64,000 nt of DNA from an uncultured virus (IMG/VR IMGVR_UViG_3300009169_000002) (lineage: Duplodnaviria; Heunggongvirae; Uroviricota; Caudoviricetes): the IMG/VR virus record IMGVR_UViG_3300009169_000002. One strand, written 5' to 3'. The stretch's first letter is position 1. Each line of letters begins with the position of its first letter. The translations under genes and the position numbers were made by a program. The notes beneath the pieces were generated by a model, which saw nothing but the letters and a program-made list of their open reading frames with translations, had not been told where the DNA came from and did not search any database. This document shows positions 1 to 63,640 of the stretch, piece after piece.

Positions 1-223
1 CGAAGCCACCCCCGGCACAGCGCTTGTGCTTGCGGACTACTGGCGCACCGAGGCGGAAGCGAACGACGAGTGGATGACCGCCAACATGAAGGTCGGCAAG
101 GCCCGGGCCGTTGCGCGCAGCAGCATCCACGCTGGCTCGTACCACGCTGGCAAAGCGCACGCGGACAGCATTAACCTGTCCCGTCAGCTGAGCGCCGGCA
201 AGGGTGCTCCCCGACTCAAGTAA
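1..223 (+). CDS. C-terminal part of DUF2786-type protein (probably continues 63641..64000)
   Basis: Open from window start in frame 2; ends SYHAGKAHADSINLSRQL, resembling DUF2786-family C-termini. Confidence 0.6.
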   Translation, partial: EATPGTALVLADYWRTEAEANDEWMTANMKVGKARAVARSSIHAGSYHAGKAHADSINLSRQLSAGKGAPRLK

Positions 224-227
224 CCGC

Positions 228-257
228 TTGCGATCAAGCGCAGGAGCCGCCTACTAT
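228..257 (+). promoter_or_regulatory. sigma70-like promoter
   Basis: TTGCGA-N18-TACTAT. Confidence 0.55.
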
Positions 258-264
258 GCACACA

Positions 265-535
265 CCCCGGGCAGCGCGGGAAATCAGCTGCCGGGGGCAG
301 GGTCGGTCCGGATGAGTACAGTAATGTGAAAACCGGATTCGCCCCTGTCCCATACTTTACTGGACCTCAACGGGGTGCAGGACACCGGGCAACCGGAAAC
401 AAGTACCGTTGCGCGAAGTCCGACCGAGGGATGGGTCGCGCTATCCTTCGGGACGACACCCGTAGGCGCGAACCCTGCGGTCACGGCGGACGGGTCGGGG
501 ACTGGTGCCTCGACCCGTCTTGCTCTAACAATAGA
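265..535 (+). ncRNA. putative multi-domain structured RNA / csrA leader
   Basis: Five consecutive stem-loops with GUAA, GCAA and UUCG tetraloops; 13 GGA triplets in 279-551; no credible ORF. Confidence 0.55.
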
Positions 536-550
536 CAAGGGAGTGGACGG

Positions 551-730
551 ATGCTGATTTTGACTCGTAAGCCCGGCGAAACCATTTGCATCGGGGACGA
601 AATCCAGATTACAATACTCGGTGTCTCGGGGCATCAAATACGCATCGGCATCGATGCACCTCGGGACGTGCCGGTCGACCGCAAGGAAGTGTACTTGCGC
701 AAACAAGCTGAAAAAGGGATTGACAAATGA
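551..730 (+). CDS. csrA: CsrA/RsmA-family RNA-binding protein
   Basis: [58 protein letters not shown]. Confidence 0.95.
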
Positions 731-1047
731 CCACACATGAGCTCAAGGTTTGGCCCGAGTTCTACGGACCTCTGCACACCGGCGACAAGCTGTTCGAGCT
801 TCGCTATGATGACCGATACTACAAGGTCGGCGACGGTCTGGTGCTGCGTGAGTTCGCACCGTGCCGCGCATGCCATGGCAAGGGCCAGCAGCCCATGCTC
901 GGCGCAGGGATGGACCCGTTTGCGTGAGAGGAGTGCAAGGGAACCGGAGGTGCGTACACCGGGCAGTCCATCCGGCGCGTCATAACGTACATCCTCAAAA
1001 AGCACGTCGCACTCCAGTCCGGTTACGTTGTGCTCGGCTTGACGTAG
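727..1047 (+). CDS. DUF3850/ASCH (PUA-like) protein with DnaJ-type Zn-finger insert, interrupted by in-frame TGA at 925-927
   Basis: [33 protein letters not shown] before the [24 protein letters not shown] after it in the same frame. Confidence 0.75.
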
Positions 1048-2276: not shown

Positions 2277-3977
2277 ATGACAATTGTAGCAGCAGACTGG
2301 AGCGTTGACCGCACCACCAAGAACGTCCGGTACATCGGTGACGACCATGTGCGCTTCGGCGGCACGACCCCGAGTTATGCGACGGTCATCGAATTTCACC
2401 GTTGGTTGCAGGACTTGGCGGATGACGCCAGCTACGCAGGCAACGACGAGCTCGACATCACGGACGTTACCCCGTCCGAGCGTGCAACGGACAACTTCGT
2501 CACGCTCATCAACGGGTACAACATCGACGCCACCACGGCGGAGCACTTGTACGACGGCTCCATTGTGCAGGGCGGCGGCACCGACATCTGGGACGGCATC
2601 GTCAACTTCGGTAACTCCGACGTCCAGATCCAGCTCATCCAGAACGGCGCGGTGCTGGCGGACGATTGGTGGAACACTGCGAGCGGCGGTCTGAACTCCG
2701 ACGCCACTGCGGGTATCTCGCACCGCTTCATGCTCAAGACGCGCACGTCGGGCACGGACATCGACTTGCGCAAGATCCTCGGCACAGCGCGTCGCTTCGG
2801 CAAGACGTACAGCGAGTTCAACATCAACGGCACCTCGCGCGGTAACAACGTCCTCGCGTTGGCAGACGCCACCGACTTGAACAACGCGACGGTCATCGGT
2901 ACGGTCGCGGGTTGGGCCACGATTGCCAATATCACGGAAGGGTACAACCCCATCGACATCGACAACGATGGCGACAACGAGTTCCTGTACAGCGAATGGA
3001 ACCGCGACATCTACTCGATCAACCAGTTCTACGAGCGCATGAAGTGGCTCACGCGCGACGGTTCAACGGAGACCCTGTACGGCCTGAGCGGTGAACTGTT
3101 CCGCGGTATCACCCACGAACTCACGATGACCACGCCGCGCAGCGGCACGTTCAGCGCGTTCGAGGCAGTCAGTTGGTCGGGCGGCACGGGCCAGATGCTT
3201 GCGGTGAACGTCGCAGCAGCGGCCACCAAAATCTGGATTCAGCTGCTGACGGGTACTGCCCCGGGAACGGGTGTGCTCATCACGGGTGGCTCGTCCGGCG
3301 CAACCGGCACGACCAGTGGCTCCGCGCTCGAGCGGCCTGTGTCGAAGCCCTTCTGCGGTGTCAGCACGGGTTCAGCGCTCATCGGTGCGTTCGGCTTCTC
3401 GCTCGAGTACGCTGACCTTTCGAACACCGACCTCATCACAGCCCTGGACGGTGTGACGTACAGCCCACCGAACAACGTCACGTTCAGCGTCGGCGGCCTG
3501 GTCGTAGGCGAGGACCGTGTGCTCGTGGGACCGGAGCTCGCAGGCGGCTTGAACTACGGGCAGTTCGCGCTCAACGGTGCGCTGACAGGTGCAGCGGTGA
3601 CCGCTGTGGTCATCACCGGCCCCATCCCTGCGGACACGCCGAGCAGCGGCACCATCCGTATCGAGCGCGCGGACGGAGCATACACGCTGCATCCGTACAG
3701 CTCGTGGACCGGCAGCACGTTCACGATCACCTCGCACAACTTCAGCACGAACAATGCTGCCAACGCTGCGGACGTGTTCATCAGCTACATCGACAAGCTC
3801 GCAGCGAGCACGACCGAGTCTTTCACGGTTGTGTATGCAGGCTCGCCTCGAGCGCTGTTCATTCGTGTGCGCGACGGTGGCACGGTTGGCGCCAGCCCCA
3901 TCAAGACCTTCGAAACGACGGGTTCGCTCGGTGCAGCAGGCGGCAGCACGACAGCGATCCGCACGCCCGACTTGTAA
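2277..3977 (+). CDS. putative virion structural protein (566 aa)
   Basis: RBS GAGG; G/T/A/S-rich; strongly C/G-ending codons like the capsid and tail genes. Confidence 0.7.
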   Translation: MTIVAADWSVDRTTKNVRYIGDDHVRFGGTTPSYATVIEFHRWLQDLADDASYAGNDELDITDVTPSERATDNFVTLINGYNIDATTAEHLYDGSIVQGGGTDIWDGIVNFGNSDVQIQLIQNGAVLADDWWNTASGGLNSDATAGISHRFMLKTRTSGTDIDLRKILGTARRFGKTYSEFNINGTSRGNNVLALADATDLNNATVIGTVAGWATIANITEGYNPIDIDNDGDNEFLYSEWNRDIYSINQFYERMKWLTRDGSTETLYGLSGELFRGITHELTMTTPRSGTFSAFEAVSWSGGTGQMLAVNVAAAATKIWIQLLTGTAPGTGVLITGGSSGATGTTSGSALERPVSKPFCGVSTGSALIGAFGFSLEYADLSNTDLITALDGVTYSPPNNVTFSVGGLVVGEDRVLVGPELAGGLNYGQFALNGALTGAAVTAVVITGPIPADTPSSGTIRIERADGAYTLHPYSSWTGSTFTITSHNFSTNNAANAADVFISYIDKLAASTTESFTVVYAGSPRALFIRVRDGGTVGASPIKTFETTGSLGAAGGSTTAIRTPDL

Positions 3978-3980
3978 TAA

Positions 3981-5558
3981 ATGGCAGCGGCAGCCTACAC
4001 CACAGACCTGACCGATATTGATACGGCTGAAACGAACGGCACGTACACCAATATCGGGACAGGTGCGGACGCGCAGGAGACGGACTACTTCATCCAAGGA
4101 AGTGCGTGCGTCTCCAAGCCGTTCAACATTACTGCGGGTGGCATCTACCACAACGAAGGCGCGGCAATCACGTTTGCCACGGACGAGTGCTACTGGCTGT
4201 GGACATACTTCGGCGCACCGAACGCGCTGCTGTCTGAGACCGCAGGCGGGATGCAGGCGTTCGTGGGCTCGAGCGGTACAGCTTACCGTCTGTGGGACTT
4301 GTACGGCTCCGATAACTACACGTATGGCGGTTGGCGTTGCTACCCCGTTGACGTTGTCAACGTTGCAGCAGACGACACGGTAGGCGCTCCGACAGGAACG
4401 CGCCAATACTTCGGGTGCTATGCGCGAACCTCCGTTGGCATCGGCAAGGGCAACCCGCTCGGCTTGGACGTTATGCGTAAGGGGCGCGGAGAGCACCGCT
4501 ACGCGAACGGCGACCTCGCCAACGGTTACGCCACGTTCGCAGGCTTCGAGGCTGTTAACAGCGCGCAGAGCGCTCGTTGGGGCTTGTGCCAATTCGAGGA
4601 TGGCAGCTACCGCATACAGGGAATGATCGTGCTCGGGTACGTGAACCCCGTGGACTTCCGCGACTCGAACAAGAACCTCGTCTGGAACAACACGAAGAAG
4701 GTCACCTCGGGCTTCAACCGGATTGAAGTGCGGCAGGCCGGTTCGCGCGTGGACTGGACGAACATCAATATCACCGCGCTTGGCACGGTAGCGCGCGGGA
4801 ACTTCGAGTGCATTGCCAATGCGGACGTGAACCTCGATACGTGCGTGTTCACCGACATGGGTACGTTTATATTCCAGTCCGCTTCAACGATTGATACATG
4901 CACCTTCCGCCGCTGCGATCAGGTGACAGCAGGCGGCGCAGCGTTCACGGACTGCACGTTCTCGCGCACGACAGCAGCTTCAGCTGTGTCCGCGACAACG
5001 CTCAACATCTTCGACAACTGCCAGTTCACTTCGGACGGCAGCAGTCACGCTGTGAACCTCGGCACCATTGCTGCGACCACGGCAATGAACTGGAACAACT
5101 TTGCGTCTGGGTACGCAGCGACCAACGGCAGCACCGGCAACGAAACGATCCTCGTCAACGTGGCATCGGGGCAGACGCTTACAATCAACGTTGGCGCAGG
5201 GTACACGACGCCCACGTATTACAACACGGGTGCAGGAACCGTGACGGTTGTGTCCGGGCAAGTTACGACGGAAATCACCGTCATCGACGTCGTGACAGGT
5301 TTGCCGCTACAGAATGCGCGCGTGTACCTCACTGCGACGGGTGGCGGACCGCTGTCGGATGGTACGGTTATCTTCAACACGCTGACCGACGTGAACGGGC
5401 AGGTGAGCGACATCCGCTCGCTTGCTGCGAACCAACAGGTGACCGGATGGGTGCGCAAGTCTACGAGCGCACCGTTCTATAAGAACTCACCCATCACCGG
5501 CACAATCAGCAACGCGACCGGGCTGTCGCTCACCGTGCAGATGATCCCTGATGAATGA
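3981..5558 (+). CDS. putative virion protein with parallel beta-helix and C-terminal Ig-like domain
   Basis: Repeats LDTCVFTD/IDTCTFRR/FTDCTFSR/FDNCQFTS; C-terminal TGLPLQNARVYL..TDVNG. Confidence 0.65.
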   Translation: MAAAAYTTDLTDIDTAETNGTYTNIGTGADAQETDYFIQGSACVSKPFNITAGGIYHNEGAAITFATDECYWLWTYFGAPNALLSETAGGMQAFVGSSGTAYRLWDLYGSDNYTYGGWRCYPVDVVNVAADDTVGAPTGTRQYFGCYARTSVGIGKGNPLGLDVMRKGRGEHRYANGDLANGYATFAGFEAVNSAQSARWGLCQFEDGSYRIQGMIVLGYVNPVDFRDSNKNLVWNNTKKVTSGFNRIEVRQAGSRVDWTNINITALGTVARGNFECIANADVNLDTCVFTDMGTFIFQSASTIDTCTFRRCDQVTAGGAAFTDCTFSRTTAASAVSATTLNIFDNCQFTSDGSSHAVNLGTIAATTAMNWNNFASGYAATNGSTGNETILVNVASGQTLTINVGAGYTTPTYYNTGAGTVTVVSGQVTTEITVIDVVTGLPLQNARVYLTATGGGPLSDGTVIFNTLTDVNGQVSDIRSLAANQQVTGWVRKSTSAPFYKNSPITGTISNATGLSLTVQMIPDE

Positions 5559-5760
5559 TTCCGTACACCTCCGCAACGCGAAAGCACTGAACGAGCGCAA
5601 TAAGCAAGACCGTGTGCGGCACGACGAATTGCTTCAGCGCGTCCAGCATCTCGAGAATCAGGTGACCATGCTGCGCTCGGAAAACGAGCAACTCAGACAG
5701 CAGGTTTACGGTATCCTAGCCGCACGCGGCACAGGGCCGACCTCTAGGAGTAGCGGGTGA
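5551..5760 (+). CDS. small coiled-coil protein
   Basis: Heptad pattern; overlaps both neighbours. Confidence 0.6.
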   Translation: MNDSVHLRNAKALNERNKQDRVRHDELLQRVQHLENQVTMLRSENEQLRQQVYGILAARGTGPTSRSSG

Positions 5761-6338
5761 TCACAATTAACTGGAGCACGCGCGAAATTTTTGTGCCAAC
5801 AGCGGACCTCACGTTGGTGCAGTCTGTCCCGTCGTTCATTTACGAGCTTGACCTTAATACATTTCGGCTCGTTCTGAAAGACTTGGAAGACAACGTCGAG
5901 GGCATGCCCTACCCGACAACGCATAACCACAACACTGAGGTCAGCGTCGCTGGTGTGACGCTGGCGCGCGTTATTGAAATGATCAACGGGTACACCGTCA
6001 CCTTCGAAGACGGGCAGTACGCTGTGAACCTTATCAACGCGAACTCCAACGTCGGTGACGTTGTGAACGTGAACCAAGTGTCTGTGCGCGTAGCCAACTC
6101 CGCTGGCTTGATTACTGTGGGTGGCGCGAGCCCGTGGACGGAAGTCATTGAGAACGGCGTTACCGCTGCCGGCATCCTACGTCTGCTCGCAGCGGTTGCA
6201 GCAGGCAAGACAAGCATCGTCAATCTTGGCAACGGGTTTGCGACGGTCACGTTCCGCAGCTTGGCAGACGACAAGGACCGCATCGTGGCAGACATGACGG
6301 GCAGCGAGCGCAGTGTGGTCACGCGAGACGTAACATGA
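5757..6338 (+). CDS. putative virion structural protein
   Basis: GTGA overlap; 193 aa beta-rich. Confidence 0.65.
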   Translation: MITINWSTREIFVPTADLTLVQSVPSFIYELDLNTFRLVLKDLEDNVEGMPYPTTHNHNTEVSVAGVTLARVIEMINGYTVTFEDGQYAVNLINANSNVGDVVNVNQVSVRVANSAGLITVGGASPWTEVIENGVTAAGILRLLAAVAAGKTSIVNLGNGFATVTFRSLADDKDRIVADMTGSERSVVTRDVT

Positions 6339-36725: not shown

Positions 36726-38744
36726 TTACCCTTCCGTGTAGCCAATCTCCCGGAGGATTTTTGTGGCTTCTGCGATATACCAGTCGTAATCCACATCGTC
36801 AGGAAGTTGGGCAGGCAGTTGCATGAGCGGCTTCGCTCCGTCGCTGCGTGGCACCTTGTTCCCGCTGCTGGCGTAAACCATCTCGCCCTCGTTGTCGGTG
36901 CTGTAATACCAACGAATTGAGGCGCCGAGGTATACGCCGTTCTTGACTGCTCCGCCCTTCACCTTGCGCACGCTCACGAACTTGCGGACGTCGGTGCAAG
37001 CGCGAATGGTGTCCGTCACGGGGATGTTCTTAGTTAGCAGCATCTCCACCGCGTCGATGCAGACTGTGGACTTCGGATTCATATGCAAGCGAAAGATTGC
37101 TTGCTTTGGGTCGTTCCATGGATTGTTGTACGCACCCTTGGACTTCACGCCGACCTTGCCGTCCTTGTCCGGCACCTTGACCGCGATGTAGTTATTCACG
37201 TCACGCGAATAATATGCAGCGTACTCGGTTTCCTCTGTCTGGAACCCCGTGTCGCGTTCCCATTGGTGGATGACCCGTTCCATGCTGTCGCGCTGCGCAC
37301 GCTCGCATTTGATGACCACACCGTCCGTATTCGCCGACACGACCTGCACACCGCTGAGCTCCAGGCGCTCGATAAGCATCAGCAGCGCGAGTTGCCCGGT
37401 GACGGTAACCTGTACTAGCAGGTCCGGGGAGTACAGGATGCTGTACTTGCTTCCGAGCTTGCCGAACGAACCGTTCACCACGATCTTCAACGTGTCTGCC
37501 ACCACGCGCATGCCTGCGGACTTAGCAGCAACACGACGGTTCACGATGTTGCTGTACACGCGCAAGAACTGCGGCCCGAGGTGGTGCGGGTACAGTTGCT
37601 GATTCAAAATGATTTGAGGGTAGTATGACGTCACGTCGCGGTCGACAATGCAATGCGTTGTCCCTGCAACGTGCGCGATTGTGGTCTCGGAACTGTGCAG
37701 TCCACCGATGCCCATGCGGTACACGTTCCCACCGATGCGCAGGTGCAGCGCACCGACCTCCGGGGGCATGCCTACCGACCCGTGATGCTCTACGACGAAC
37801 CAGGCGTTCCGCACGACCTCGAGCGCCCACTGCATCAACGGGGACTCGTACTTCAAAAACGAAGGCACCTTGTAGCGGTACGAGGTGCCGGGCTCGATGA
37901 CAGGCTTGCCCGGGCGGCTGCCGTCCAGCCGGTGGAGCTCGTTCGAAATAACCGCTTCCGCGATTTGTGCATCCGACCTCGAGCGAAGGTCGATGTCGTA
38001 CTCGCGCCCCAAGCTCTCACGGAGTTCAACCTGTTCGGTAAGCGACTCGAGGAGGAACCCTGTCTGCATGAGGTCGTTGACGTTGTACCATCGCACGATC
38101 GCCATCTGGTCGGGCGACAGCGTTGCCTCATGGTGAAAGGGCAAGTCCTGCATGCGAGGCGTGTGCAACCGTCCACCGTAAATCTTCAAGCTCGCGGTGA
38201 GCGGTGCTACTTCAATGAGGTCGATGTGGTCAATGTTTTTGAGTGCGCGCACCTTGTTCTGCTTCAGCACGTCGGTCGCACGCCACTCCTCTTGGATGAT
38301 GCGGTTGGTGGCAGTCTTGATCTGTTCGGTGTTCTTGCCGGCAAGCGCAAGCGCTGCCATAGGCAGGTCGTATCCGTAGCTGTTGAAGCCAACGAGGGTG
38401 AAGCTGCGCATTATCCACTCGAGCTTCGCGCGCTCCGCTAGCTCTTGCCCGGAGGACATTTCAAAGTAGACGATCGCGCCGGTGGTGTACGACGCGAAGC
38501 TGATGAGGAAGTAATTCCAATATGACTCCACATCGAACAGCAGCTTGTCCCGGCGCAGGCGTGCTTCCGCGAGCTCGGGGTCGCTCATCACATGCACGTT
38601 GAAGCGCAGCGCGTCTTCCAAGCCGGGCAGGTAGTCCGAGCGTAACCACACGGGTTCCGGTGGCGTGCGCTTGGGTGCAGCCTCCTTGACCGCTTTGACG
38701 ATTGGTTCGTCGCGCCACCACAAGCCTAGAGCGTCTGCTCTCAC
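36726..38744 (-). CDS. family-B DNA polymerase with exonuclease domain
   Basis: FDVE, GFNSYGYD; DVTSYYP, KIVVNGSFGK, SANTDG. Confidence 0.92.
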   Translation of the reverse strand: MRADALGLWWRDEPIVKAVKEAAPKRTPPEPVWLRSDYLPGLEDALRFNVHVMSDPELAEARLRRDKLLFDVESYWNYFLISFASYTTGAIVYFEMSSGQELAERAKLEWIMRSFTLVGFNSYGYDLPMAALALAGKNTEQIKTATNRIIQEEWRATDVLKQNKVRALKNIDHIDLIEVAPLTASLKIYGGRLHTPRMQDLPFHHEATLSPDQMAIVRWYNVNDLMQTGFLLESLTEQVELRESLGREYDIDLRSRSDAQIAEAVISNELHRLDGSRPGKPVIEPGTSYRYKVPSFLKYESPLMQWALEVVRNAWFVVEHHGSVGMPPEVGALHLRIGGNVYRMGIGGLHSSETTIAHVAGTTHCIVDRDVTSYYPQIILNQQLYPHHLGPQFLRVYSNIVNRRVAAKSAGMRVVADTLKIVVNGSFGKLGSKYSILYSPDLLVQVTVTGQLALLMLIERLELSGVQVVSANTDGVVIKCERAQRDSMERVIHQWERDTGFQTEETEYAAYYSRDVNNYIAVKVPDKDGKVGVKSKGAYNNPWNDPKQAIFRLHMNPKSTVCIDAVEMLLTKNIPVTDTIRACTDVRKFVSVRKVKGGAVKNGVYLGASIRWYYSTDNEGEMVYASSGNKVPRSDGAKPLMQLPAQLPDDVDYDWYIAEATKILREIGYTEG

Positions 38745-39724
38745 ATCCGCATTCCTACAAGCGCACCACGCAAGCGCTCCCCGTAGAACACGCTTGGGGC
38801 AGGGTACGTGCTGAAGTCGATGTGCGTTGCGACGTTGCGCAGTAGCATGAGCATTTCGATATTATAGATGCCTTCACACTCGAGGCCTGGTATCTCGAAG
38901 CGTGCGCCTTCATCCTCTTTTTCGCCGGGTGCAGTGCGTAGCGTACCACTTCCAATAAACACGCGCCCTGCCTTGTCTACGAACCGCTTCAGCTTTTCCA
39001 GCCCGTCGAATATGCGCTTGTCGATCGCGGTAGCGTTGTCGCTGTTGGCAAACAGCTTGCCGATGTCCGGCCACTCCAGACCGAGAAGCTGGCTGCGAAT
39101 CCAGCGCTTGTCGGTGTAGTGGAACGTCACCGAGTTTTCGGTGACTTGTGCATGCGTCGGAGGCTCGTTGATGCGCAGCATCTCCGCAACCGCTGCGCGA
39201 GGGATGTTAATCTCGACTGGCATGGTTGCTTCGGTCCAGTATTCGACCGCGACAACGTTGTTCGTTGCGAACACGCTTTGACCGCGCATCAGCACACCGT
39301 TGCACCACTGGCGCGAAGCGTCGTCGCCGATGAACGGCTGCACCACTTTCAGCGCACGGAGCACAGTCTCCCCGTCGAAGTCCACACGCTCACCCTCGGG
39401 TTGTACGTGCGGGGTTTCCTCGGCAATGCAGTCGACAAACGCTTTGAACTGACCGCAAGCAATGCGCAAGCGACCTGCTGGCGTCATTGCGAGTTGGATG
39501 GGGTAGTCGTGCCCGTTCTCGTCGGTGTCCGTGCATTGCGCGATCGCGTTGACCAGTGCGGCGGCCTTGGGTTTGCAGTCAATGTTGAAAGCAATCGGCG
39601 CGCACAGGGCGAGCGAACCGTTGTACGCTCGCACAGCACCGTCCTCGATAACGAAGTGCGTCATTGCAGGCATGAAGTCTTTCTTGGCGACTGCACCCTG
39701 TACGAACCGCAATTCCTTCAGCAT
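38741..39724 (-). CDS. beta-clamp-like processivity factor
   Basis: Next to polymerase; ends PSVFYGERLRGALVGMR. Confidence 0.75.
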   Translation of the reverse strand: MLKELRFVQGAVAKKDFMPAMTHFVIEDGAVRAYNGSLALCAPIAFNIDCKPKAAALVNAIAQCTDTDENGHDYPIQLAMTPAGRLRIACGQFKAFVDCIAEETPHVQPEGERVDFDGETVLRALKVVQPFIGDDASRQWCNGVLMRGQSVFATNNVVAVEYWTEATMPVEINIPRAAVAEMLRINEPPTHAQVTENSVTFHYTDKRWIRSQLLGLEWPDIGKLFANSDNATAIDKRIFDGLEKLKRFVDKAGRVFIGSGTLRTAPGEKEDEGARFEIPGLECEGIYNIEMLMLLRNVATHIDFSTYPAPSVFYGERLRGALVGMRM

Positions 39725-40659
39725 TAGAAAAGCTCCTGCACGCGCGCACGAAAGACTTCGCTGTGCGATGCGTTGATCATTGTGTTTATCACGCCGAATG
39801 CCCACAGGTTGTAAGCTGCCCGGGCCTCGTAGACAGTGCTCAGCCGTTCATACGTGAAGCCTTGCTTCTCAAGCATGCGGAACAGGTATTCAGTCTCGAG
39901 CGGCGTCAGTGTGGTTATGTGCTGTCCGGCGTCGTGCCTGCTTGGGCTTGAGCTCGACACCTTGATGGGTCCGTGCTCTGGTGTCATGACGCTACCGAAC
40001 GCAGCAGCTTGAATCCACGACGACGAGTCGCACGAATACCACGGGTAAGCTTCCATGAGCGGCACGGACGTCATACCGAACCCGTGTACCTTGACGCGCG
40101 CACGACCGCTGCCGTCCGTTAGATACTTCTCCCATATACGGTCGAGCCACACTTCCAGCTGAGCAGCGCTTGTGCCGACCATGCCACCGAGTGTGATGTA
40201 GTCGTAGTTCGCGACGTAGTATTCGAGCGCAGCTTCGGGTTCACCCTTGTGGAAGCAAGGCAGAGGGCGCACGCCACGCTCCTCCATCTCGAGTTGGTTG
40301 CGGTACGTTCCCTCCGCGGACGCTGCGTTGCCACCGATGCTGTCCAGCACCGACGCCATAAGCGCACCGTCCTCAACGCGCAGGATGTCCATGTTGCGCT
40401 TGATATACTCGCAGTAATCATACACGGTGAGCTTGACGCCCAACGTCCACGCAGAGAACGCGCCGGAGTCCAGAAAGATTTGCGCCTGCTCGCGGCGCAT
40501 GTCGTCAACGTACTTCTGCTTCCCGACGTAGTGCCATGATTCAAGGAGGTGCGGCAACTCGTGGACGATGTTTTTCTCGTGGTCGTTCAGCTTCTCGTAA
40601 CGGCTACCCTGCCCTCGCATGTAACCGTTCGAGTAAACCGCAGCGGTGTAGATGTGCAT
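39724..40659 (-). CDS. dpdA: DpdA-like (TGT-fold) 7-deazaguanine DNA transglycosylase
   Basis: FLDSGAFS, PCFH.GE, LGGMV, VHGFG, SCDSSSW; follows folE-queD-queC-queE. Confidence 0.8.
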   Translation of the reverse strand: MHIYTAAVYSNGYMRGQGSRYEKLNDHEKNIVHELPHLLESWHYVGKQKYVDDMRREQAQIFLDSGAFSAWTLGVKLTVYDYCEYIKRNMDILRVEDGALMASVLDSIGGNAASAEGTYRNQLEMEERGVRPLPCFHKGEPEAALEYYVANYDYITLGGMVGTSAAQLEVWLDRIWEKYLTDGSGRARVKVHGFGMTSVPLMEAYPWYSCDSSSWIQAAAFGSVMTPEHGPIKVSSSSPSRHDAGQHITTLTPLETEYLFRMLEKQGFTYERLSTVYEARAAYNLWAFGVINTMINASHSEVFRARVQELF

Positions 40660-40681
40660 CAGCGGCCTCCCTGCTGCTAGT

Positions 40682-41578
40682 TTACACCAAGCGCAGGAAC
40701 TCCGCACGAGCACTTGCGTCCGTCTTAATGACGCCGCGGACCGCTGTGGTTATCGTGTGGTGCCCCTGTTGGCACACGCCACGCGACTCCATGCACAGGT
40801 GACGCGCCTTCATGATGACACCGACACCGAGCGGGTTCAGGTGCTCATGCAGCGCGTCTGCGATCTGGTCCGTCATGCGCTCCTGCACTTGCAAGCGACG
40901 TGCGAACACGTCCGCAAGGCGCGAGAGCTTGCTGAGCCCGACAATCTTACCGTTCGGGATGTAGCTGATGGTGACCGTGCCGAAAATGGGTGCGAGGTGG
41001 TGCTCGCAGTGCGAGTAGACCGGGATGTCCTTCACGGTGATCATCTGGTCGTGCTTCTCCGCACCGTCCTCGAATACCTTGAGGATGGTAGCAGGGTCGA
41101 CGCTGTACCCGCTGCACCAATGCTTCCAGGCTTTCGCCACTCGCGTCGGTGTTTCGTGCAAGCCACCGCGCGTCGGATCTTCGCCGACAAACTGGAGGAG
41201 CCTGACCACATTGTCCTCGAAGGAACTGAACTCGTTGCCCTCCCACGGGAACACGATCCAACGCTTGTGGAACTGCCCGGGCTTGCGCTTGTCGAGCAGA
41301 GCGTGGAAGGGTACGTGCGGGTATTCCTTGGTCCACTTCCGTTCGGTGGAGCCGCTGTCAATCAAGTCATCGATGATGACTTGCGCTTGCGCGGGATCGT
41401 CCACCATTTGCAGTTCGCAGTATTGCCCAACCGCAAGCGCTGCGGAGATGCCACCGCGCGGCACACCGAAAGCACGGAGTGAGGTGTAACCAGACTCATC
41501 CATCTGGTCCACGAGCTTGTGAGCAAGCGCAAATGCAAGCTCGCTCAGCGTCTGCTGAGTAATGTGTAACTTCGACAC
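40682..41578 (-). CDS. folE: type I phosphoribosyltransferase fused to GTP cyclohydrolase I
   Basis: N-terminal GVPRGG, VIIDDLIDSGST, WIVFPWE; C-terminal ETPTRV, SHCEHHL, GLSKLSR, RLQVQERMT, HLCMESRG. Confidence 0.92.
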   Translation of the reverse strand: MSKLHITQQTLSELAFALAHKLVDQMDESGYTSLRAFGVPRGGISAALAVGQYCELQMVDDPAQAQVIIDDLIDSGSTERKWTKEYPHVPFHALLDKRKPGQFHKRWIVFPWEGNEFSSFEDNVVRLLQFVGEDPTRGGLHETPTRVAKAWKHWCSGYSVDPATILKVFEDGAEKHDQMITVKDIPVYSHCEHHLAPIFGTVTISYIPNGKIVGLSKLSRLADVFARRLQVQERMTDQIADALHEHLNPLGVGVIMKARHLCMESRGVCQQGHHTITTAVRGVIKTDASARAEFLRLV

Positions 41579-41581
41579 GGG

Positions 41582-42016
41582 TCACCTCGAGTACGATGCG
41601 GAGCACTTGCGCGTCTCTTCGATCACGCAAGAAATAAGACGGATGCCTGTACCTTGGAGTTGACCCGGGCCAACGACGTTGACCAGATACTCCGCCATGT
41701 TTTCGGCAGTGGGGTTGAACGGTACGCCGACAACACCCGCTGCGTCAATTTTCATGAGCCCGTGGAGCATAGGGTCATGCATCCAGATGAGCATCTTGTG
41801 GTCCCACTCGTGCTCGACCCACATGCAGAGCAGTTCCTTGATCGCAGTGAAATCGATAACGCGACCGATGTTGTCGAGCGCGTTACTGCCCGGGACCGCT
41901 TCGCATACGAAGTGGATGCGGTAGTTATGTCCGTGCAGGTGAGCACACTTGCTCTCGTGACCGTGGACACGGTGACCGCAGCTGATGTCGTGATACCGTT
42001 GTGCGCGGTGAGCCAT
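41582..42016 (-). CDS. queD: 6-carboxytetrahydropterin synthase
   Basis: CGHR..KCAHLHGHNY; IDF; DH; NPTAEN; EET. Confidence 0.93.
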   Translation of the reverse strand: MAHRAQRYHDISCGHRVHGHESKCAHLHGHNYRIHFVCEAVPGSNALDNIGRVIDFTAIKELLCMWVEHEWDHKMLIWMHDPMLHGLMKIDAAGVVGVPFNPTAENMAEYLVNVVGPGQLQGTGIRLISCVIEETRKCSASYSR

Positions 42017-42768
42017 TACACGGCGCTCCGGACTTTGTCGTAATTCTTGGTCTTGGGCAGGCCCATGAGCCCTTCACTCACCGCACGTATAACAAGCGGG
42101 TCTGGCTCGCCAGCATCCAAGAAGCCTTGCGCGCGGAGCACGTTTGCGTGATTCTTGTCGGTCGGCGGATACTTGCCGTCATAGCTCGTGTGGCTGTACG
42201 CCAGCGCCTCCCAACAGCCCGGAAGGGTTTTGGCCAGCTTCACCGTGTCCGCCTTGCTCTTGTACATGAGCGGGGCGCGGAGGTGCAGCTCGTAGTTCCC
42301 GAGCGACAGGGTGAATGCTTCCTCTATCGCACGCCGGTATTCCTCGGTGCAATCCGGATAATTCGCATTGTCTTCCTGACAGATACCTGTTACGAGGTCG
42401 TGGCATTCAAGCGCGACCGCACGGTTGGCAGCAATGGTGAAGAACAACGTATTGCGCATCGGCACGAACGTGAGCTCGACACGGTTGCCGATAACCTTGT
42501 CCATCTGCTGGAACGTGTCGTATCGCTCGAGGTCGTTGCTGCTCGTCAGCGGGGACGTGCTGCGCAGGCAGTCCGGGACACGAACAACCTCGTGAGTCAG
42601 CACGCCTGCCATCGCAGCGACTTTACGCGCGGCGTCCAACTCTAGCACATGACGCTGACCATAGTCAAACGTAATGGCGTGCAGGTTGGGAGTCAGGTTG
42701 TGCTTAGCCCAGAACAAGCACGTTGTCGAGTCCTGTCCGCCTGACAGAACCACTAGAGCTTTTTTCAT
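42016..42768 (-). CDS. queC: 7-cyano-7-deazaguanine synthase lacking C-terminal Zn cysteines
   Basis: SGGQDSTTC, FDYGQRH..EL, FVPMRN, YPDC, PLMYKSK. Confidence 0.92.
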   Translation of the reverse strand: MKKALVVLSGGQDSTTCLFWAKHNLTPNLHAITFDYGQRHVLELDAARKVAAMAGVLTHEVVRVPDCLRSTSPLTSSNDLERYDTFQQMDKVIGNRVELTFVPMRNTLFFTIAANRAVALECHDLVTGICQEDNANYPDCTEEYRRAIEEAFTLSLGNYELHLRAPLMYKSKADTVKLAKTLPGCWEALAYSHTSYDGKYPPTDKNHANVLRAQGFLDAGEPDPLVIRAVSEGLMGLPKTKNYDKVRSAV

Positions 42769-43490
42769 TACAGCACCCCGAGAAGCTTGTGAAGTTGGAT
42801 TTGAAGAATGTATCCGTGCTCCATACACGAATCCATGCATGCGCGCAAGTGCCTTGCATTGTCTTCCACGTTCTGCTCGTCCATCGGTTGCAGGTACACG
42901 GGACGACGAAAAGCAACGGGCGGACGCGCTACACGAGGCGCCGCACTGTGGTCAAGAGCCAGCACGGGCAACCCGTCGCGCGGGTCTACGCTGTCCGCGC
43001 TCATGACGTACTTGTAACAGCACGCGGCGTCTATGGTCGCGGGGTGGACTGCCCCGGTCTTGGGGCTACATACCACAAACGCACCCCGACGGCTCGAAGT
43101 ATTCGTGTGGATGTACTGCATCGCGTTGATGGGCGGGGGAAGCGTGCCGTTCGTCTCAATCTGGACATAGTACGCTTCAGCGCACAGAGCACCGATTAGC
43201 GCGCCGATGTCCTGCCGGAAGGGTTCGCCCCCGGTTATGACCACAAGTCCCGGTACACGGTTCGACGCGAGCTTTACGAGGTTGACAACGTGCTCCACTG
43301 TGCAGTCGGTTCGACCGGACGTGTAGTCGGTGTCACAGGCCGGGCATTGCAGGTTGCACCCGGCAAGACGGATAAATACAGCGGGGGTTCCGCAGAACGG
43401 GCCTTCGCCCTGAATGGTGTCAAATACTGAGTAGACGGAGAGGTGCGATTGGTGTACACGCTTCTCCGGTGCTTGCTGATTCAGCTGCAT
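42768..43490 (-). CDS. queE: 7-carboxy-7-deazaguanine synthase (radical SAM)
   Basis: TIQGEG, GCNLQCPACDT, TGGEP, IETNG, SPK, QLHK. Confidence 0.95.
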   Translation of the reverse strand: MQLNQQAPEKRVHQSHLSVYSVFDTIQGEGPFCGTPAVFIRLAGCNLQCPACDTDYTSGRTDCTVEHVVNLVKLASNRVPGLVVITGGEPFRQDIGALIGALCAEAYYVQIETNGTLPPPINAMQYIHTNTSSRRGAFVVCSPKTGAVHPATIDAACCYKYVMSADSVDPRDGLPVLALDHSAAPRVARPPVAFRRPVYLQPMDEQNVEDNARHLRACMDSCMEHGYILQIQLHKLLGVL

Positions 43491-57113: not shown

Positions 57114-57304
57114 TTTTGAGATCCAATCATGGTTTGAAAATTTTGAGATCTTATCAGACTTTTTGAAAATTTTGAGATCTTATCACCTTTTTTCAAAATT
57201 TTGAGATCTTACGGGGTTTTTGGATTTTTGAGATCTTACGGGGTTTTCCAAATTTTGAGATCTTATCACCTTTTTTGGAAAAGTTGAGATCTTACGGGGT
57301 TCCC
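57113..57304. repeat. seven-copy TTGAGATC(TTA) tandem array, iteron-like
   Basis: Copies at 57116, 57143, 57172, 57201, 57228, 57255, 57284 (period 27-29). Confidence 0.9.
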
Positions 57305-58459: not shown

Positions 58460-58820
58460 AGCTTTTTATTAAAGTTTTTATTTTATTTTGTGCTTGACGT
58501 AGCAGCACAATTCAGCTAATGCAGTTTTTTATTTTTTGGTGGTGCTAAAAATAGCCATTAGCACTGTTTTGCGATTACCCCCGGCTATATGCCGCGCACG
58601 CTTTTAGAAAAAGATTTATGGCGCGGCATATACAAACAGGGTGTCCCTACTATTTTATTTAATTACTATTATTGTGTATAAGTGCTTGCTTTCATTGGGA
58701 GTTCTGTGTTATCCGCTGGATTTAACGCTGCTAATTGTAGGTCAAGCGGTCCACGGCACGCGCTAGCATGTGGTTATCCATACGTCAAGCGCTTTGCAAT
58801 TAAAAATAATTCGTCCAAAC
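58460..58820. other. AT-rich divergence region with 12-bp inverted repeat
   Basis: TATATGCCGCGC 58586-58597 / GCGCGGCATATA 58621-58632. Confidence 0.6.
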
Positions 58821-58962
58821 CCCTTGCATCCGGATTAGGGGTGCGCTATAGTTTGTTCACGGTGGAGCTAGGGAACAGGGGAAGCAACAGGGTGTAAGTC
58901 CTAAACGGCAACCCTCCCCAACCTAGCAAAGCCGCTGGACTAACACGTAACCGGAGCAGCAC

Positions 58963-59196
58963 ATGAACAACGTCAAAGCACCCGCCCACCTCGACACACT
59001 GGTCGTTTTTGAAACGCGGGAAGAGGACTACGAAGGGAACCTGCACTGCGCACACGGTAGCGATGGAAAGTTCTACTTGTTTTACGAAGGGGGCACTTTT
59101 AACGACGGCAGCGACTACTTCCAGTTCAACACACTGCCCGAAGCGTTTAAGCGCGCAGCCGAGTTGACCGCCGAGCTTTTGGGTATTGACGACTGA
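58963..59196 (+). CDS. early hypothetical protein
   Basis: RBS GGAG; flanked by promoter and terminator. Confidence 0.7.
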   Translation: MNNVKAPAHLDTLVVFETREEDYEGNLHCAHGSDGKFYLFYEGGTFNDGSDYFQFNTLPEAFKRAAELTAELLGIDD

Positions 59197-59217
59197 ACCC
59201 TTGCAACATCCGGACCA

Positions 59218-59243
59218 AAGGCGCCTGAGGGCGCCTTTTTTTT
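59218..59243 (+). terminator. intrinsic terminator
   Basis: AAGGCGCC-TGAG-GGCGCC-T8. Confidence 0.85.
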
Positions 59244-59247
59244 GCTT

Positions 59248-59395
59248 TGCTGCACTGCGCTGTGAATAAGTCTGTTCATAACTCGCAAGGCGCGTCGATC
59301 GGGACAGTACCGGGGCGGACGTACAGGGTCACCCCTCAAAACGCACAGCGAGCTTTATAATGCGTTCTAGCGAGAATGCAAGATGTGGACCAACT
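59248..59395. repeat. ~150-bp element with tandem DnaA-box-like sites, copy 1
   Basis: Colinear with 62610-62756. Confidence 0.75.
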
Positions 59396-59509
59396 TTGGG
59401 TCCAAAAATATCGAAAATAAATGCGAAAAGGGGTTGACGCACCCCTAGTCTTGATGCACAATTGCGTCATGGTTCAGCAACGTGCTGCACCACCAAACGG
59501 AGACCGAAC

Positions 59510-59782
59510 ATGCGAACCTTCAACTACACCGGAACACTGGTCACGCGCTGCCGCACCACTGGTCACACCGATGCATTTAGCTTCAGCGGGTTCACCTCTT
59601 GGGACGGTGTGGTGCGGGAGCTCAAGTCGCGCGTGCGCAACCCGAACTGCGAGCTGCGCAGCATGGTCGGTGTGGTCATTGAGGACTGCAAGCACGTCGA
59701 CACGTTTGCCTACAATGCGGACGAGCTGCTGGAGCTCACCGGCACGGGGTCGCTCGACGTTGCGCAGTTCCGCAAGCGCTAA
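59510..59782 (+). CDS. early hypothetical protein
   Basis: RBS GGAG. Confidence 0.7.
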   Translation: MRTFNYTGTLVTRCRTTGHTDAFSFSGFTSWDGVVRELKSRVRNPNCELRSMVGVVIEDCKHVDTFAYNADELLELTGTGSLDVAQFRKR

Positions 59783-59878
59783 AAATAAATGCGTCCGGGG
59801 GCTTGACCTGCGGACGCATCCGGATTACACTGTATTCACGGTGGAGCAACGGGTTCCACCCAACCGGAGCAAAGCAAC

Positions 59879-60106
59879 ATGACCACCCAGACCCACGAAC
59901 CGCACGGCACGACGTTTATGCGCAAGCTCAAGGGCCGCAAGCTCCAGTTTGCAATCGGCGGACCAACGCTTGCCGAAATTCAGCGCATGTGCATCGCGGG
60001 TCACGAGGACGTGTTTGTGTGGCAGGGTGACAACAGGCAGGAGGTAGTTTTCCGCAAGCTCGCGGACGGGTCCATCGAAACGCTCAGCGACCGCTTTATC
60101 CCCTAG
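59879..60106 (+). CDS. early hypothetical protein
   Basis: RBS GGAG. Confidence 0.7.
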   Translation: MTTQTHEPHGTTFMRKLKGRKLQFAIGGPTLAEIQRMCIAGHEDVFVWQGDNRQEVVFRKLADGSIETLSDRFIP

Positions 60107-60147
60107 GAGGTGCAAGATCCAGACCAACCAAGCTCAATCCCGAGCGC

Positions 60148-60178
60148 AAAAGGGTCACTTCGGTGACCCTTTTTTTTT
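60148..60178 (+). terminator. intrinsic terminator
   Basis: AAGGGTCAC-TTCG-GTGACCC-T9. Confidence 0.9.
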
Positions 60179-60357
60179 GCCTAAAATACTTGCCTCTACC
60201 TGAACTTTCGTGGTACAATGGTCCAAATGCGTTTCGGACGCGCAAGGCCCCGGATGCTGTGGGGCAGCAAAAATAAATGCGTCAAACCCCTTGACGTGTG
60301 GATGCATCCGGATTATCCTGTCTGCACTAGGTAAGCAGTTCAACAGGAAGTAACCAA

Positions 60358-60513
60358 ATGTCCACCCGCGCCATGACCCTCCGCAACGTCACCGCCCTGC
60401 GCAACAGCCTTGGCAGCAAGCTGTTCGACCGCACGTACCGCTTCCTGCGCGAGGAAGCAATGCGCTCCTCGGACGGTACGGTCCGCACGTTTGCCATTTT
60501 CGAGGTGCGCTAA
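60358..60513 (+). CDS. early hypothetical protein
   Basis: RBS CAGGA; 51 aa. Confidence 0.6.
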   Translation: MSTRAMTLRNVTALRNSLGSKLFDRTYRFLREEAMRSSDGTVRTFAIFEVR

Positions 60514-60514
60514 A

Positions 60515-60706
60515 ATGTACGCACGCGACCTGAAGGCCGGTCAGCGCTTCCAGTTTGTCAACGCTTTTGGCAACGTCCCCGTGAGTGCCCCCGTGTACAC
60601 GGTAACCCGTGACGCGCAGCGCGCAAGCGAGCCCGGGTACTGGATCGTCCACACCAACCTCGAGCGGTGGGCGGGTCGCGGTCGTTCCCCTGTGGTGCTG
60701 CTGTGA
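60515..60706 (+). CDS. early hypothetical protein
   Basis: RBS GAGGT. Confidence 0.6.
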   Translation: MYARDLKAGQRFQFVNAFGNVPVSAPVYTVTRDAQRASEPGYWIVHTNLERWAGRGRSPVVLL

Positions 60707-60909
60707 CCGCAAAGCGCGTCACGCTCAAGTCCAAGGGGTTCGACCGGGCATACCACGTCCTGCTGGACGGTGTCAAGGTCGGCGAGGTAACCCGGCAAAT
60801 TGCTAGCACCACGTACACCGGCAAGGTGAACGACGGTAAGCGGGACTGGCAGGTCTGGGGGTTGAACCAAAAGGAAGTCATTGCTGTGGTGGAAATGTAC
60901 CTCACGTGA
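60703..60909 (+). CDS. early hypothetical protein
   Basis: GTGA overlap. Confidence 0.55.
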   Translation: MTAKRVTLKSKGFDRAYHVLLDGVKVGEVTRQIASTTYTGKVNDGKRDWQVWGLNQKEVIAVVEMYLT

Positions 60910-60989
60910 CCTTCCCAAATGGAATCACGAAACCCTTGACAACCGGATGCATCCGGACCATACTTGCGTCACCTACTAAGGAGACCGAC

Positions 60990-61247
60990 ATGCCCCAAGT
61001 CAAAATGACCGAACTCCCACGCACCGAGCTTGCACAGTTCGACTGGATAGTTGGTCCGGTTTATGCAGCGCACGTTGCGGACCTGTACGACATAGCGCTT
61101 GTGTATCAGGGTCCGGGAGCGTATGCAGTGGTCCGCCCCTCGCACCAGGCCTACGTCGCATGCTGCCCCAACGAGCGCAAAGCGCAGCAACTCATCGAGT
61201 CGCTTGCTGACGCGCTGTCCGACGACGAGCGCACCCGACCCGTCTAA
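60990..61247 (+). CDS. early hypothetical protein
   Basis: RBS TAAGGAG. Confidence 0.7.
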   Translation: MPQVKMTELPRTELAQFDWIVGPVYAAHVADLYDIALVYQGPGAYAVVRPSHQAYVACCPNERKAQQLIESLADALSDDERTRPV

Positions 61248-61270
61248 CCCCTGCAACATCTGGACCAACT

Positions 61271-61294
61271 AAGGGCGCGGAGGCGCCCTTTTTT
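61271..61294 (+). terminator. intrinsic terminator
   Basis: AAGGGCGC-GGAG-GCGCCC-T6. Confidence 0.85.
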
Positions 61295-61454
61295 GCGTCC
61301 AAAAGACTTGCCCTCCCCGCGCGGTTCATGGTACAATGGTCCAAACGGGTTGCGCCCGGGTCGTGCTGCACGGCAGCGAAAATAAAGTGGACGCACCCCT
61401 TGCCTCCTGCATCCGGATGACCCATACTACCAACAGTTCAACAGGAGACCCGAC

Positions 61455-61733
61455 ATGCCCCAAGCCCACACCGCTCGCATCGTTACCTTCCACCGCTCGC
61501 AGGGTTGGACCACAATAACGCTTGACCTCACGAAAAAGTCCGTGGCGGTTTGGGCGCGGTCGGTCGGGTACACGGTCACCGGCGTCAAGGAGCAAAGCTC
61601 CAACCCGCGCATGCAGTTCCGCGCCGAAATGGTGGGTGAACCCATTATTGCGGAACTGGTCGGTCCCATGTACGACGGGGACGGGGTTGTGCGGTACGAA
61701 AGCACCGAAGCCTATGACGCGCTGTCAAGGTAA
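61455..61733 (+). CDS. early hypothetical protein
   Basis: RBS CAGGAG. Confidence 0.7.
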   Translation: MPQAHTARIVTFHRSQGWTTITLDLTKKSVAVWARSVGYTVTGVKEQSSNPRMQFRAEMVGEPIIAELVGPMYDGDGVVRYESTEAYDALSR

Positions 61734-61806
61734 ATAAATCAGCGCGGGGGCTTGACCTCCCCCGTGCGTTGACCTAAGCTGCTCACAGTTCAACAGGAGC
61801 CCCGCA

Positions 61807-61956
61807 ATGACCTTCGACCTGCACATTGACGCAAGCATCCGCGACCTGCTGCTGCAAGCGCTCGCGCCCCTTGCCACGCCCGGTTCCGAAGCGGAAGCTG
61901 TAGCTGACATGCTGCGCGACCTCGAACCCACTGGTCTCAACGACCTCACCGCCTAA
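61807..61956 (+). CDS. early acidic peptide
   Basis: RBS CAGGAG; 49 aa. Confidence 0.65.
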   Translation: MTFDLHIDASIRDLLLQALAPLATPGSEAEAVADMLRDLEPTGLNDLTA

Positions 61957-61965
61957 GGAGTTGAC

Positions 61966-62268
61966 ATGCCCCTCCGCATCTGCTATCACCCGCTGCTCGC
62001 GCAACAGCAAGTCAACACGCGCATGCTCCCCTTCGCCATGTTCGGTATCACGGGAGGGTACGGTCGCACACGCGCTGCACTGGTCGACGCTGTGCGCAAC
62101 GGGAACCATGTGGTCGCCCGGGGCTTGTTCGACAAGCTTGTGCTCGAGGGTGTACGGGACGACGTTAAGGAAAACGGAATCACCGAGCGGGAAGCGTACG
62201 ACGGTCTAGCCCTTGCATGCAAGAACGAGACCATGTTCGCCGGGTTTGTGGTGGAGGGTGCGCTGTGA
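61966..62268 (+). CDS. early hypothetical protein
   Basis: RBS TAAGGAG. Confidence 0.7.
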   Translation: MPLRICYHPLLAQQQVNTRMLPFAMFGITGGYGRTRAALVDAVRNGNHVVARGLFDKLVLEGVRDDVKENGITEREAYDGLALACKNETMFAGFVVEGAL

Positions 62269-62486
62269 CCATCCTCATGACCATTAAGGTCCACGAAGGG
62301 GGAAACCCGAACAACCCCGTTGTCAAGCTCCACGTCGAAAGCGACGGGACCGGCCACAGCTTCACCGTCCGAGCCGGCGGGAAGGCCCTGCTAGCGGATG
62401 GAAGCAAGAATCGTTCGCATCCGGTGCTGAGCGCAGCGACTCAGGATGCACTGCGGGAGGCGACCGCTGTGGTCACCGACCTGTAG
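62265..62486 (+). CDS. early hypothetical protein
   Basis: GTGA overlap; RBS GGAGG. Confidence 0.6.
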   Translation: MTILMTIKVHEGGNPNNPVVKLHVESDGTGHSFTVRAGGKALLADGSKNRSHPVLSAATQDALREATAVVTDL

Positions 62487-62506
62487 AGGGTTGCAAGAAT
62501 TGGACC

Positions 62507-62532
62507 AAAGGGAGCCTCCGGGCTCCCTTTTT
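62507..62532 (+). terminator. intrinsic terminator
   Basis: AAAGGGAGCC-TCCG-GGCTCCC-T5. Confidence 0.85.
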
Positions 62533-62609
62533 ATTTTTCACGCAGGGGCTTGACGTGCATCCGCTAGATGTGGTACAATGGTCCAAACGTCTGCGCGACG
62601 CGCCCGAAT

Positions 62610-62756
62610 TGCTGCGCTGCACTGTGGATAAATCTGTTCATAACTCTCACCATGCGTCGATCGGTCATGCCCCCTTGCGTCGGTACAGGGTCGGTCGAAA
62701 ATCGCTTAAATCGCGTTAGGCGCGGTTCTACGTGGAATGCAAGTCTTGGACCAACT
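62610..62756. repeat. ~150-bp element with tandem DnaA-box-like sites, copy 2
   Basis: TGTGGATAA 62623 and TGTTCATAA 62635. Confidence 0.75.
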
Positions 62757-62838
62757 ATTTGCCGAAAATAGTTCGAAAAAGGGTTGACGTCTGGATGTAG
62801 TTGACGCATACTTGCTTCAGGTTCAACGGGAGAGCGAC

Positions 62839-63201: not shown

Positions 63202-63276
63202 AAATAAAGATGCACGGGGGCTTGACTCCCCGTGCATCCTGACCCACACTACCTCCATCGACTACTGGAGCACGAC

Positions 63277-63567: not shown

Positions 63568-63640
63568 AAATAGTTCGCCCGGGGGCTTGAACTCCCGGGC
63601 GTGTCGACGTACAATGGGTCCACGTTAACAGGAGACTGAC

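Follow-up and report, generated by a model that had tools for sequence, protein, structure and literature searches.

A structured RNA ahead of csrA in a Nipunavirus-related phage points to an undescribed, modular RNA family

The locus and the predicted fold

The window, meaning the whole stretch of 64,000 nucleotides that we analysed, is a nearly complete circular phage genome of about 64.1 kb, and its last bases enter the gene whose end opens it. It carries a primase gene, a 7-deazaguanine cluster and the head and tail genes of a siphophage, and its DNA polymerase is 63% identical to Nipunavirus polymerases (PaMx25 and JG012); judged by sequence, the source is a Nipunavirus-related siphophage with 7-deazaguanine genes. 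A non-coding stretch, flanked by a 244-aa gene and a genuine csrA, closes a series of small early cassettes; it extends from the end of the upstream open reading frame (ORF; 223) to the csrA start (551). The features that we placed in and around it are as follows.

2..223, + strand: 3′ end of the 244-aa early gene (ORF; remainder at the other window end, complete ORF in L002)
228..257, + strand: predicted sigma70-type promoter, TTGCGA-18-TACTAT (motif inspection; putative start site)
262..525, + strand: structured non-coding RNA with putative ends (z −4.3; homologues in L193, L203 and L358; no Rfam match)
270..292, + strand: 5′ hairpin with a 6-bp stem and a conserved 11-nt loop containing GGA 279-281 (compensatory changes)
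294..351, + strand: long variable stem-loop with internal loops and a GUAA tetraloop (pair probabilities 0.93-1.0)
360..417, + strand: module B, an H-type pseudoknot (covariation, 5 rows)
360-362/378-380 and 364-366/374-376, + strand: module B stem, loop 367-373 (pairs checked)
368-373/406-411, + strand: module B pseudoknot helix (pairs checked)
385-396 and 397-405, + strand: hairpin inserted in module B, and its A-rich linker (pairs checked)
424..480, + strand: two hairpins, 424-451 and 460-480, with complementary loops (436-440 with 467-471; minimum-energy fold)
488..520, + strand: 3′ hairpin with a 7-nt loop (501-507) containing invariant CUGGU (covariation, 9 sequences)
534..553, + strand: csrA ribosome-binding region with GGA at 540, 545 and 549, a candidate CsrA operator (GGA count; putative binding)
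551..730, + strand: csrA, 59 aa (Pfam PF02599, 89.5 bits, E 1.3e-25)
727..927, + strand: DUF3850 gene, next in the operon (Pfam E 7.5e-13)

The gene ending at 223 has a weak match to PHROG 421 (E 8e-4), and its fragment in the window has none in Pfam; we take its product to be DUF2786-like, and a search with this protein returned the source phage only. A first-pass annotation, made from the sequence alone, had placed a promoter between this gene and the RNA. A consensus scan missed it (8/12 score, under the cut-off), but the TTGCGA-18-TACTAT arrangement is present at 228-257, and a TTGCRA hexamer stands at the equivalent upstream place in 8 of the 10 related RNAs inspected. The same annotation's call of csrA behind the RNA was borne out by Pfam, and the protein has both L4 and R44, which are named as critical CsrA residues (PMC7652899).

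We found that the proposal of a structured RNA of about 260 nt is well founded. The minimum free energy of the stretch was −141.3 kcal/mol (z −4.28), a value that none of 100 shuffles equalled, and homologues have kept the pairing. The + strand folded better than the − strand (z −3.3 versus −2.1). Rfam 15 covariance models gave no match in the window at the gathering score; searching 200-620 returned a single chance match (E 2.7), ten homologue loci gave no meaningful match, and ARAGORN found no tRNA or tmRNA gene in the window. Resemblances to RNase P, SRP, group I intron, preQ1 and pistol RNAs found no support in Rfam. With homologues and covariation in hand and no Rfam family, the suggestion of an unrecognised class of non-coding RNA stands.

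The individual helices fared differently. At the 5′ end, a helix had been drawn at 265-296; hairpin 270-292 within it is backed by compensatory changes in two homologues, with 18/18 cells paired and three of six pairs changed on both sides, in three sequences that are too few to beat shuffles clearly (20/500 as high). Positions 269-274 could instead pair with 520-525, in competition with this covarying hairpin. The helix at 294-351 is solid by its pair probabilities; its counterpart in L193 is a stem of different sequence, and L203 has none. In the fold proposed for 362-421, helix 368-373/406-411 is real, but it is a pseudoknot formed on the loop of a hairpin, 360-380, that had not been drawn. 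The small hairpin 385-396 has a predicted probability of 0.01, yet it recurs with other loops in L358 and L193, and a closing helix 380-383/418-421 is possible. By contrast, the nested fold drawn across 422-482 had pair probabilities of 0.00-0.23 and is replaced in the minimum-energy structure by two hairpins, whose loops (436-440/467-471) may kiss; at the equivalent position, Nipunavirus RNAs show, by eye, a pair of hairpins whose loops are complementary. The 3′ helix, 488-520, was correctly predicted (pair probabilities 0.96-1.0, first pair 0.52), and because no U-run follows, it is not a typical terminator. We infer a revised fold that would consist of a 5′ hairpin, a variable stem, a pseudoknot, two hairpins and a 3′ hairpin.

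Relatives of the RNA in other phages

The window shares the module-B core with L193, L203, L358 and L177, all from uncultured phages. The L193 primase is 65% identical to that of the window phage, and L193 and L203 have the 5′ hairpin and the 355-380 stretch of the window; in both, six loop bases pair with the strand behind the A-rich linker, with different letters. L177 has both kinds in tandem, module A (described below) first and module B behind it. Across five rows of short, automatic alignment, one of them (R7M) misaligned, 47/50 module-B cells were paired and 6/12 pairs changed on both sides. A covariance model built on four rows (R3) matched three of 50 records at E ≤ 0.1, of which L358 was confirmed (E 0.005) and the other two were not. 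A further 80 loci, among them R7M, gave no match, which leaves module B in R7M as a reading by eye. In L358 the pseudoknot is spelled with letters of its own, the hairpin inserted at window 385-396 is present again, and a 3′ hairpin carries the same loop; as this last hairpin lies outside model R3, it is an independent confirmation. The window itself has the defining 7-nt loop hairpin paired behind an A-rich linker, with covariation, a fit that is descriptive because the window was part of the model. On these alignments, the window RNA is a firm member of a small module-B group of five sequences.

The 3′ hairpin reaches further. In nine sequences (the window, L193, L358 and six of Nipunavirus type), 105/106 cells of the stem were paired, 8/12 pairs changed on both sides and CUGGU was invariant. 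The hairpin with this loop thus recurs in two module-B relatives and in Nipunavirus RNAs; L203 is without the CUGGU loop. When covariation among homologues was examined, pairing proved to be kept while the letters change, both in the pseudoknot and in the hairpins. Nested folding energies were less distinctive, with z ≤ −2.5 in just 3 of 12 homologues, for which boundaries were rough and pseudoknots went unscored. In L193 (4530-4714, − strand), about 185 further non-coding bases with hairpins lie between the 3′ hairpin and the next gene.

Pistol-like small ribozymes have a loop paired downstream, fixed junction letters and a two-stranded helix after them. The topology of the RNA resembles that of small ribozymes, and its invariant letters cluster at junctions, so we considered whether it could cut the early transcript as a self-cleaving or processing ribozyme. 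No Rfam ribozyme matched the window or its homologues at E ≤ 5-10, however, and modules A and B have no invariant, catalytic-looking core in common; we regard a ribozyme as improbable.

A larger group of RNAs lies in Nipunavirus and MMDA13-type phages. A one-sequence covariance model of the window RNA weakly matched, over its full length and with the 3′ hairpin as anchor, the unannotated gp62-gp63 gap of PaMx25 (E 0.002-0.02, rough values). This gap is conserved in 13 cultured Nipunavirus-type isolates, and 18 aligned copies hold an RNA of 233-374 nt with swapped internal domains; the copy in PIP has no clean 3′ hairpin. Its core, module A, is a sister pseudoknot with a similar position and a similar promoter ahead of it, and descriptor and profile searches also found it in MMDA13 and in uncultured relatives fetched through their primase. 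In 19 sequences, 240/247 cells of the module-A pseudoknot were paired and 11/13 pairs covaried, as compared with 34-48% paired in slid controls. Because related sequences can beat shuffles, this table of pair types is the stronger evidence. Further members that the module-A model, R2, picked up are G036, G059 and Alteromonas phage R7M; it matched 14 of 50 records at E ≤ 0.5, with four rows (three phages) below 0.002, and none in MiCath or SeppeHuegi.

The window RNA is tied to this larger group by shared parts, place and promoter, and not by one model. Model R2, run against the window with filters off, gave no match at the RNA (0 of 17 at E ≤ 10), and sequence profiles of module A and of the MMDA13-type RNA did not match there either; a Nipunavirus 3′ profile matched 498-526 only at E 4.6, with one profile row wrongly cut. 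Since the module-A model misses the window, the wider link is modular. The window does have the CUGGU 3′ hairpin, the TTGCRA-type promoter and the early-region place of the Nipunavirus type; in the MMDA13 type, CUGGU is absent as an apical hairpin loop. Members in cultured phages that are unannotated as RNAs include L041:21727-22029 (PaMx25), L042:21222-21630 (MMDA13) and L259:1440-1800 (R7M). In several GenBank records, short hypothetical ORFs cover the RNA or its 3′ hairpin is called a terminator. In its accessible part, the MMDA13 paper (PMC7472734) goes no further than noting repeats and promoters in a non-coding region, and in literature listings and the opening lines of abstracts we found no description of this RNA.

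Direct searches returned little beyond the source phage. blastn of the RNA against 50,697 phage records gave three chance 30-nt matches, and exact RNA patterns found only the source phage in viral contigs and nothing in metagenomes. The 3′-loop pattern hit 40 loci: the source phage, six Nipunavirus-type RNAs and otherwise coding or unrelated sequence, including many contigs of 1-5 kb with one shared reading-frame motif; two of ten distinct matches to the loop core lay within coding DNA. In prokaryote genomes the module-B pattern hit 40 loci, and an A-rich linker with a partner strand was present at none of them; in viral contigs it hit 43, two of them real (the source phage and L334). A helicase relative, L046, shares neighbouring genes and was set aside, being without the RNA and without csrA. 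Four single-stranded parts of the RNA were also compared with the phage genome for antisense targets, and none stood out. Among the 15 sequencing runs listed, 11 were DNA runs that contain at least half of the sequence words of the locus; they come from metagenomes of freshwater sediment, soil and wetland, and five may be the source itself. No RNA run containing these words was among those listed. Four sequencing runs showed no variants inside the RNA, and one diverged contig set (X13) did not span it.

CsrA and the GGA motifs

The position of csrA, together with the GGA triplets, had led the first-pass annotation to a phage CsrA with a cognate sponge or an autoregulatory leader. Its count of 13 GGA in 279-551 is exact, including three at 540, 545 and 549 by the csrA start. 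The excess is marginal (9.1 ± 2.1 in shuffles, p 0.045), although none of the other 273-nt windows stepped by 50 on the + strand reached 13 (mean 4.3). These numbers, and the adjacency of csrA in two phages, would be consistent with a sponge of the CsrB/RsmZ type that titrates CsrA of the phage or the host. Inside the RNA, however, ten GGA compare with 7.6 expected in 262-526 (p 0.17, one ANGGA) or with 7.5 in shuffles of 265-520 (p 0.15). One of the ten is predicted to be fully unpaired, and 279-281 is additionally unpaired in the comparative model. None of 13 RNAs was enriched in GGA (p ≥ 0.13), fully unpaired GGA amounted to at most one per RNA, and the closest homologues, L193 and L203, hold three GGA each.

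The neighbourhood does not favour a sponge either. Pfam identified csrA in two of 24 records and in none of one more; as 22 of these 25 bear the RNA, the share is 2/22, counted with five records that are only 31-72% complete, which leaves 20 RNA-bearing records without csrA. Both csrA genes lie directly behind a module-B RNA (the window and L203/L334), whereas other genes follow the RNA in L358 and L193. A total of 89 phage records have a relative of the 59-aa CsrA, and none of 36 other viral csrA loci had similar sequence upstream. The long stable stems also contrast with the loops of short hairpins in which CsrA prefers GGA (PMC7652899). CsrB/CsrC and RsmX/Y/Z are alike in size range, in having several GGA and, for the window phage, in their Csr neighbourhood; as summarised in that source, CsrB-type RNAs carry repeated CAGGA elements in loops and single strands. 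By contrast, GGA in the window RNA is neither enriched, repeated in loops nor conserved, and the RNA has long stems and a pseudoknot, no intrinsic terminator, no match to the Rfam CsrB/Rsm families and relatives that mostly lack csrA. We conclude that the RNA is real and uncatalogued and does not look like a CsrA sponge, a role that we consider extremely unlikely. The 59-aa protein is an ordinary member of the phage CsrA/RsmA homologues (PMC8450108), and the accessible part of that paper describes no linked RNA.

The leader proposal survived in part. In both csrA-linked phages, three GGA fall around the ribosome-binding site within the last 25 bases before the start, and csrA of E. coli is self-repressed (PMC7652899); we think it probable that the window csrA is locally self-repressed at these 25 nt, for which the rest of the RNA would not be needed. 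A stronger version, in which the whole RNA is a CsrA-responsive csrA leader, would act through self-repression or through a switch pairing 281-293, the 3′ arm of the 5′ hairpin, with the csrA start region 548-560, where 11/13 pairs are possible. It fits with the lack of a terminator before csrA and with the 5′-loop GGA, which is present in both csrA-linked RNAs and not in L193, where csrA is not adjacent; this GGA is the sole hint of a link between RNA and CsrA, with n = 2. On the other hand, the modules occur without csrA in L193, L358 and L177, and the loop GGA is without the upstream A of the CsrA consensus. Opening of the 5′ hairpin is disfavoured because compensatory changes keep it. A csrA leader that involves the body of the RNA therefore seems to us quite unlikely.

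Possible roles and genomic context

Our best reading from these comparisons is an RNA of about 260 nt, driven by its own predicted promoter, from an undescribed and modular family. The helix letters are free and the loops and linker are fixed, which indicates that shape and a few exposed bases are selected; the same pattern argues against selection for pairing with a changing target or for one downstream gene. Consistent with the latter, the next gene varies, being CsrA-like in two members and encoding unrelated proteins in others. In MMDA13 and L147, a hairpin with a T-run follows the RNA, and there is no SD-led ORF of at least 40 aa within 400 nt. Given the selected shape and these terminator-type hairpins without an ORF, we tentatively favour, at somewhat less than even confidence, a folded RNA with a role of its own, as ligand or decoy, that does not depend on the next gene. 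Host RNA polymerase would make it early in infection; the A-rich linker would pack on the stem, as in other H-type pseudoknots, to give a compact body, and the fixed loops (3′ CUGGU and the 5′ loop) would contact a partner, which may be a host or phage protein or RNA. In the MMDA13 type, with its terminator following, the product would be a free RNA, and in the window phage and Nipunavirus it would be a stable 5′ part of the next mRNA. csrA would then be a passenger on the same promoter in some phages.

In 9 of the 14 members examined, an SD-led ORF begins at most 41 nt from the RNA 3′ end with no terminator between, an arrangement that fits a cis-acting leader equally well. One possible explanation is thus a gene-blind element of the nascent transcript that stabilises mRNA or makes polymerase processive, like put of HK022. 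The RNA lies directly behind a promoter that heads about 36 kb of one-strand genes, and put RNA likewise sits behind early phage promoters, before a long operon, and acts on distant terminators (PMC9378689). In the window, however, a strict hairpin-plus-T-run scan of 225-36000 found no intrinsic terminator on the + strand that would have to be bypassed, and within 1-2000 a looser scan listed three weak sites on the + strand, a number close to the mean of shuffles. Furthermore, put is about 70 nt with two stems, its accessible description mentions no pseudoknot, it has no sequence or Rfam likeness to the present RNA, and large swapped insertions are tolerated here. We hold such a cis element to be a real but rather unlikely possibility.

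The boldest reading is a new class of phage RNA whose tRNA-type contacts would engage translation or defence machinery of the host. The invariant UGGU could pair with the ACCA end of uncharged tRNAs, or the loop could mimic a tRNA loop, while the pseudoknot would dock on a protein or the ribosome. T-box RNAs use UGGN for contact with the tRNA end, placed at the 5′ edge of the 7-nt bulge that separates helix A1 from helix A2 (PMC7583486), whereas the window UGGU occupies positions 3-6 of an apical 7-nt loop, and the window RNA has no specifier loop, terminator, amino-acid genes or Rfam match. Because the T-box motif sits at a bulge edge and L203 is without the loop, we consider tRNA contact unlikely. 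If true, the phage would dampen tRNA-based stress or defence signalling early in infection.

The RNA could also be linked to replication, as a primer or an origin R-loop. The distance to the primase gene is about 2 kb in Nipunavirus and MMDA13, where the RNA sits in the region of divergent transcription (PMC7472734), and several members hold the octamer TGTGGTYA inside the RNA; the window RNA is about 8 kb from the primase gene and has no exact octamer. TGTGGTYA is the most over-represented 8-mer of the window, with 31 copies on the + strand and 21 on the − strand. We counted it in the window and also in L041, L042, L256, L257, L258 and L046; it is spaced at 2-3 kb, within genes too, and is just as frequent in five cultured relatives. 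Its sequence is similar to the site that the NrS-1 primase-polymerase is reported to recognise (PMC8718748) and, by that analogy, is probably the priming site of this phage group. As it recurs every 2-3 kb on both strands, one copy in the RNA is not special, and we judge a replication-linked RNA very unlikely.

GOLLD, ROOL and OLE are orphan structured RNAs of phages and bacteria. The present family is, like them, phage-borne, modular, pseudoknotted and found by covariation; it differs in its smaller size (about 230-410 nt), in having no Rfam match and in being known so far from Nipunavirus-related phages only. Strongly covarying and uncatalogued, it extends the set of structured phage RNA families, and it occurs in cultured, easily handled phages (13 Nipunavirus-type isolates, MMDA13 and Alteromonas phage R7M), so that expression, fold, partner and role are testable at once. 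With its two kinds of pseudoknot, swapped internal domains and portable 3′ hairpin, the modular build offers a natural experiment on the requirements of the core. The locus also carries a caution, in that a GGA-rich RNA beside a phage csrA need not be a sponge.

Several other features of the window were noted. At 2277-6338, three genes (566, 525 and 193 aa) without a Pfam match are inserted among the middle genes and are absent from the related loci compared, except for the source phage's own records. The − strand at 36726-43490 encodes the DNA polymerase, a processivity factor and the 7-deazaguanine cluster (TGT-like, GTP cyclohydrolase, QueC-like and QueE-like; compare Queuovirinae). Small early cassettes occupy 58800-64000, each with a strong sigma70-like promoter; several have a GCATCCGG-type box within the promoter as well as a GGTCCAAA motif, and four clear intrinsic terminators lie in this region. 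Near the divergent early region, a TTGAGATCTTA-type repeat recurs at intervals, six to seven times, in the non-coding stretch 57130-57300; the copies appear iteron-like and make this stretch a candidate origin or packaging/terminal site.
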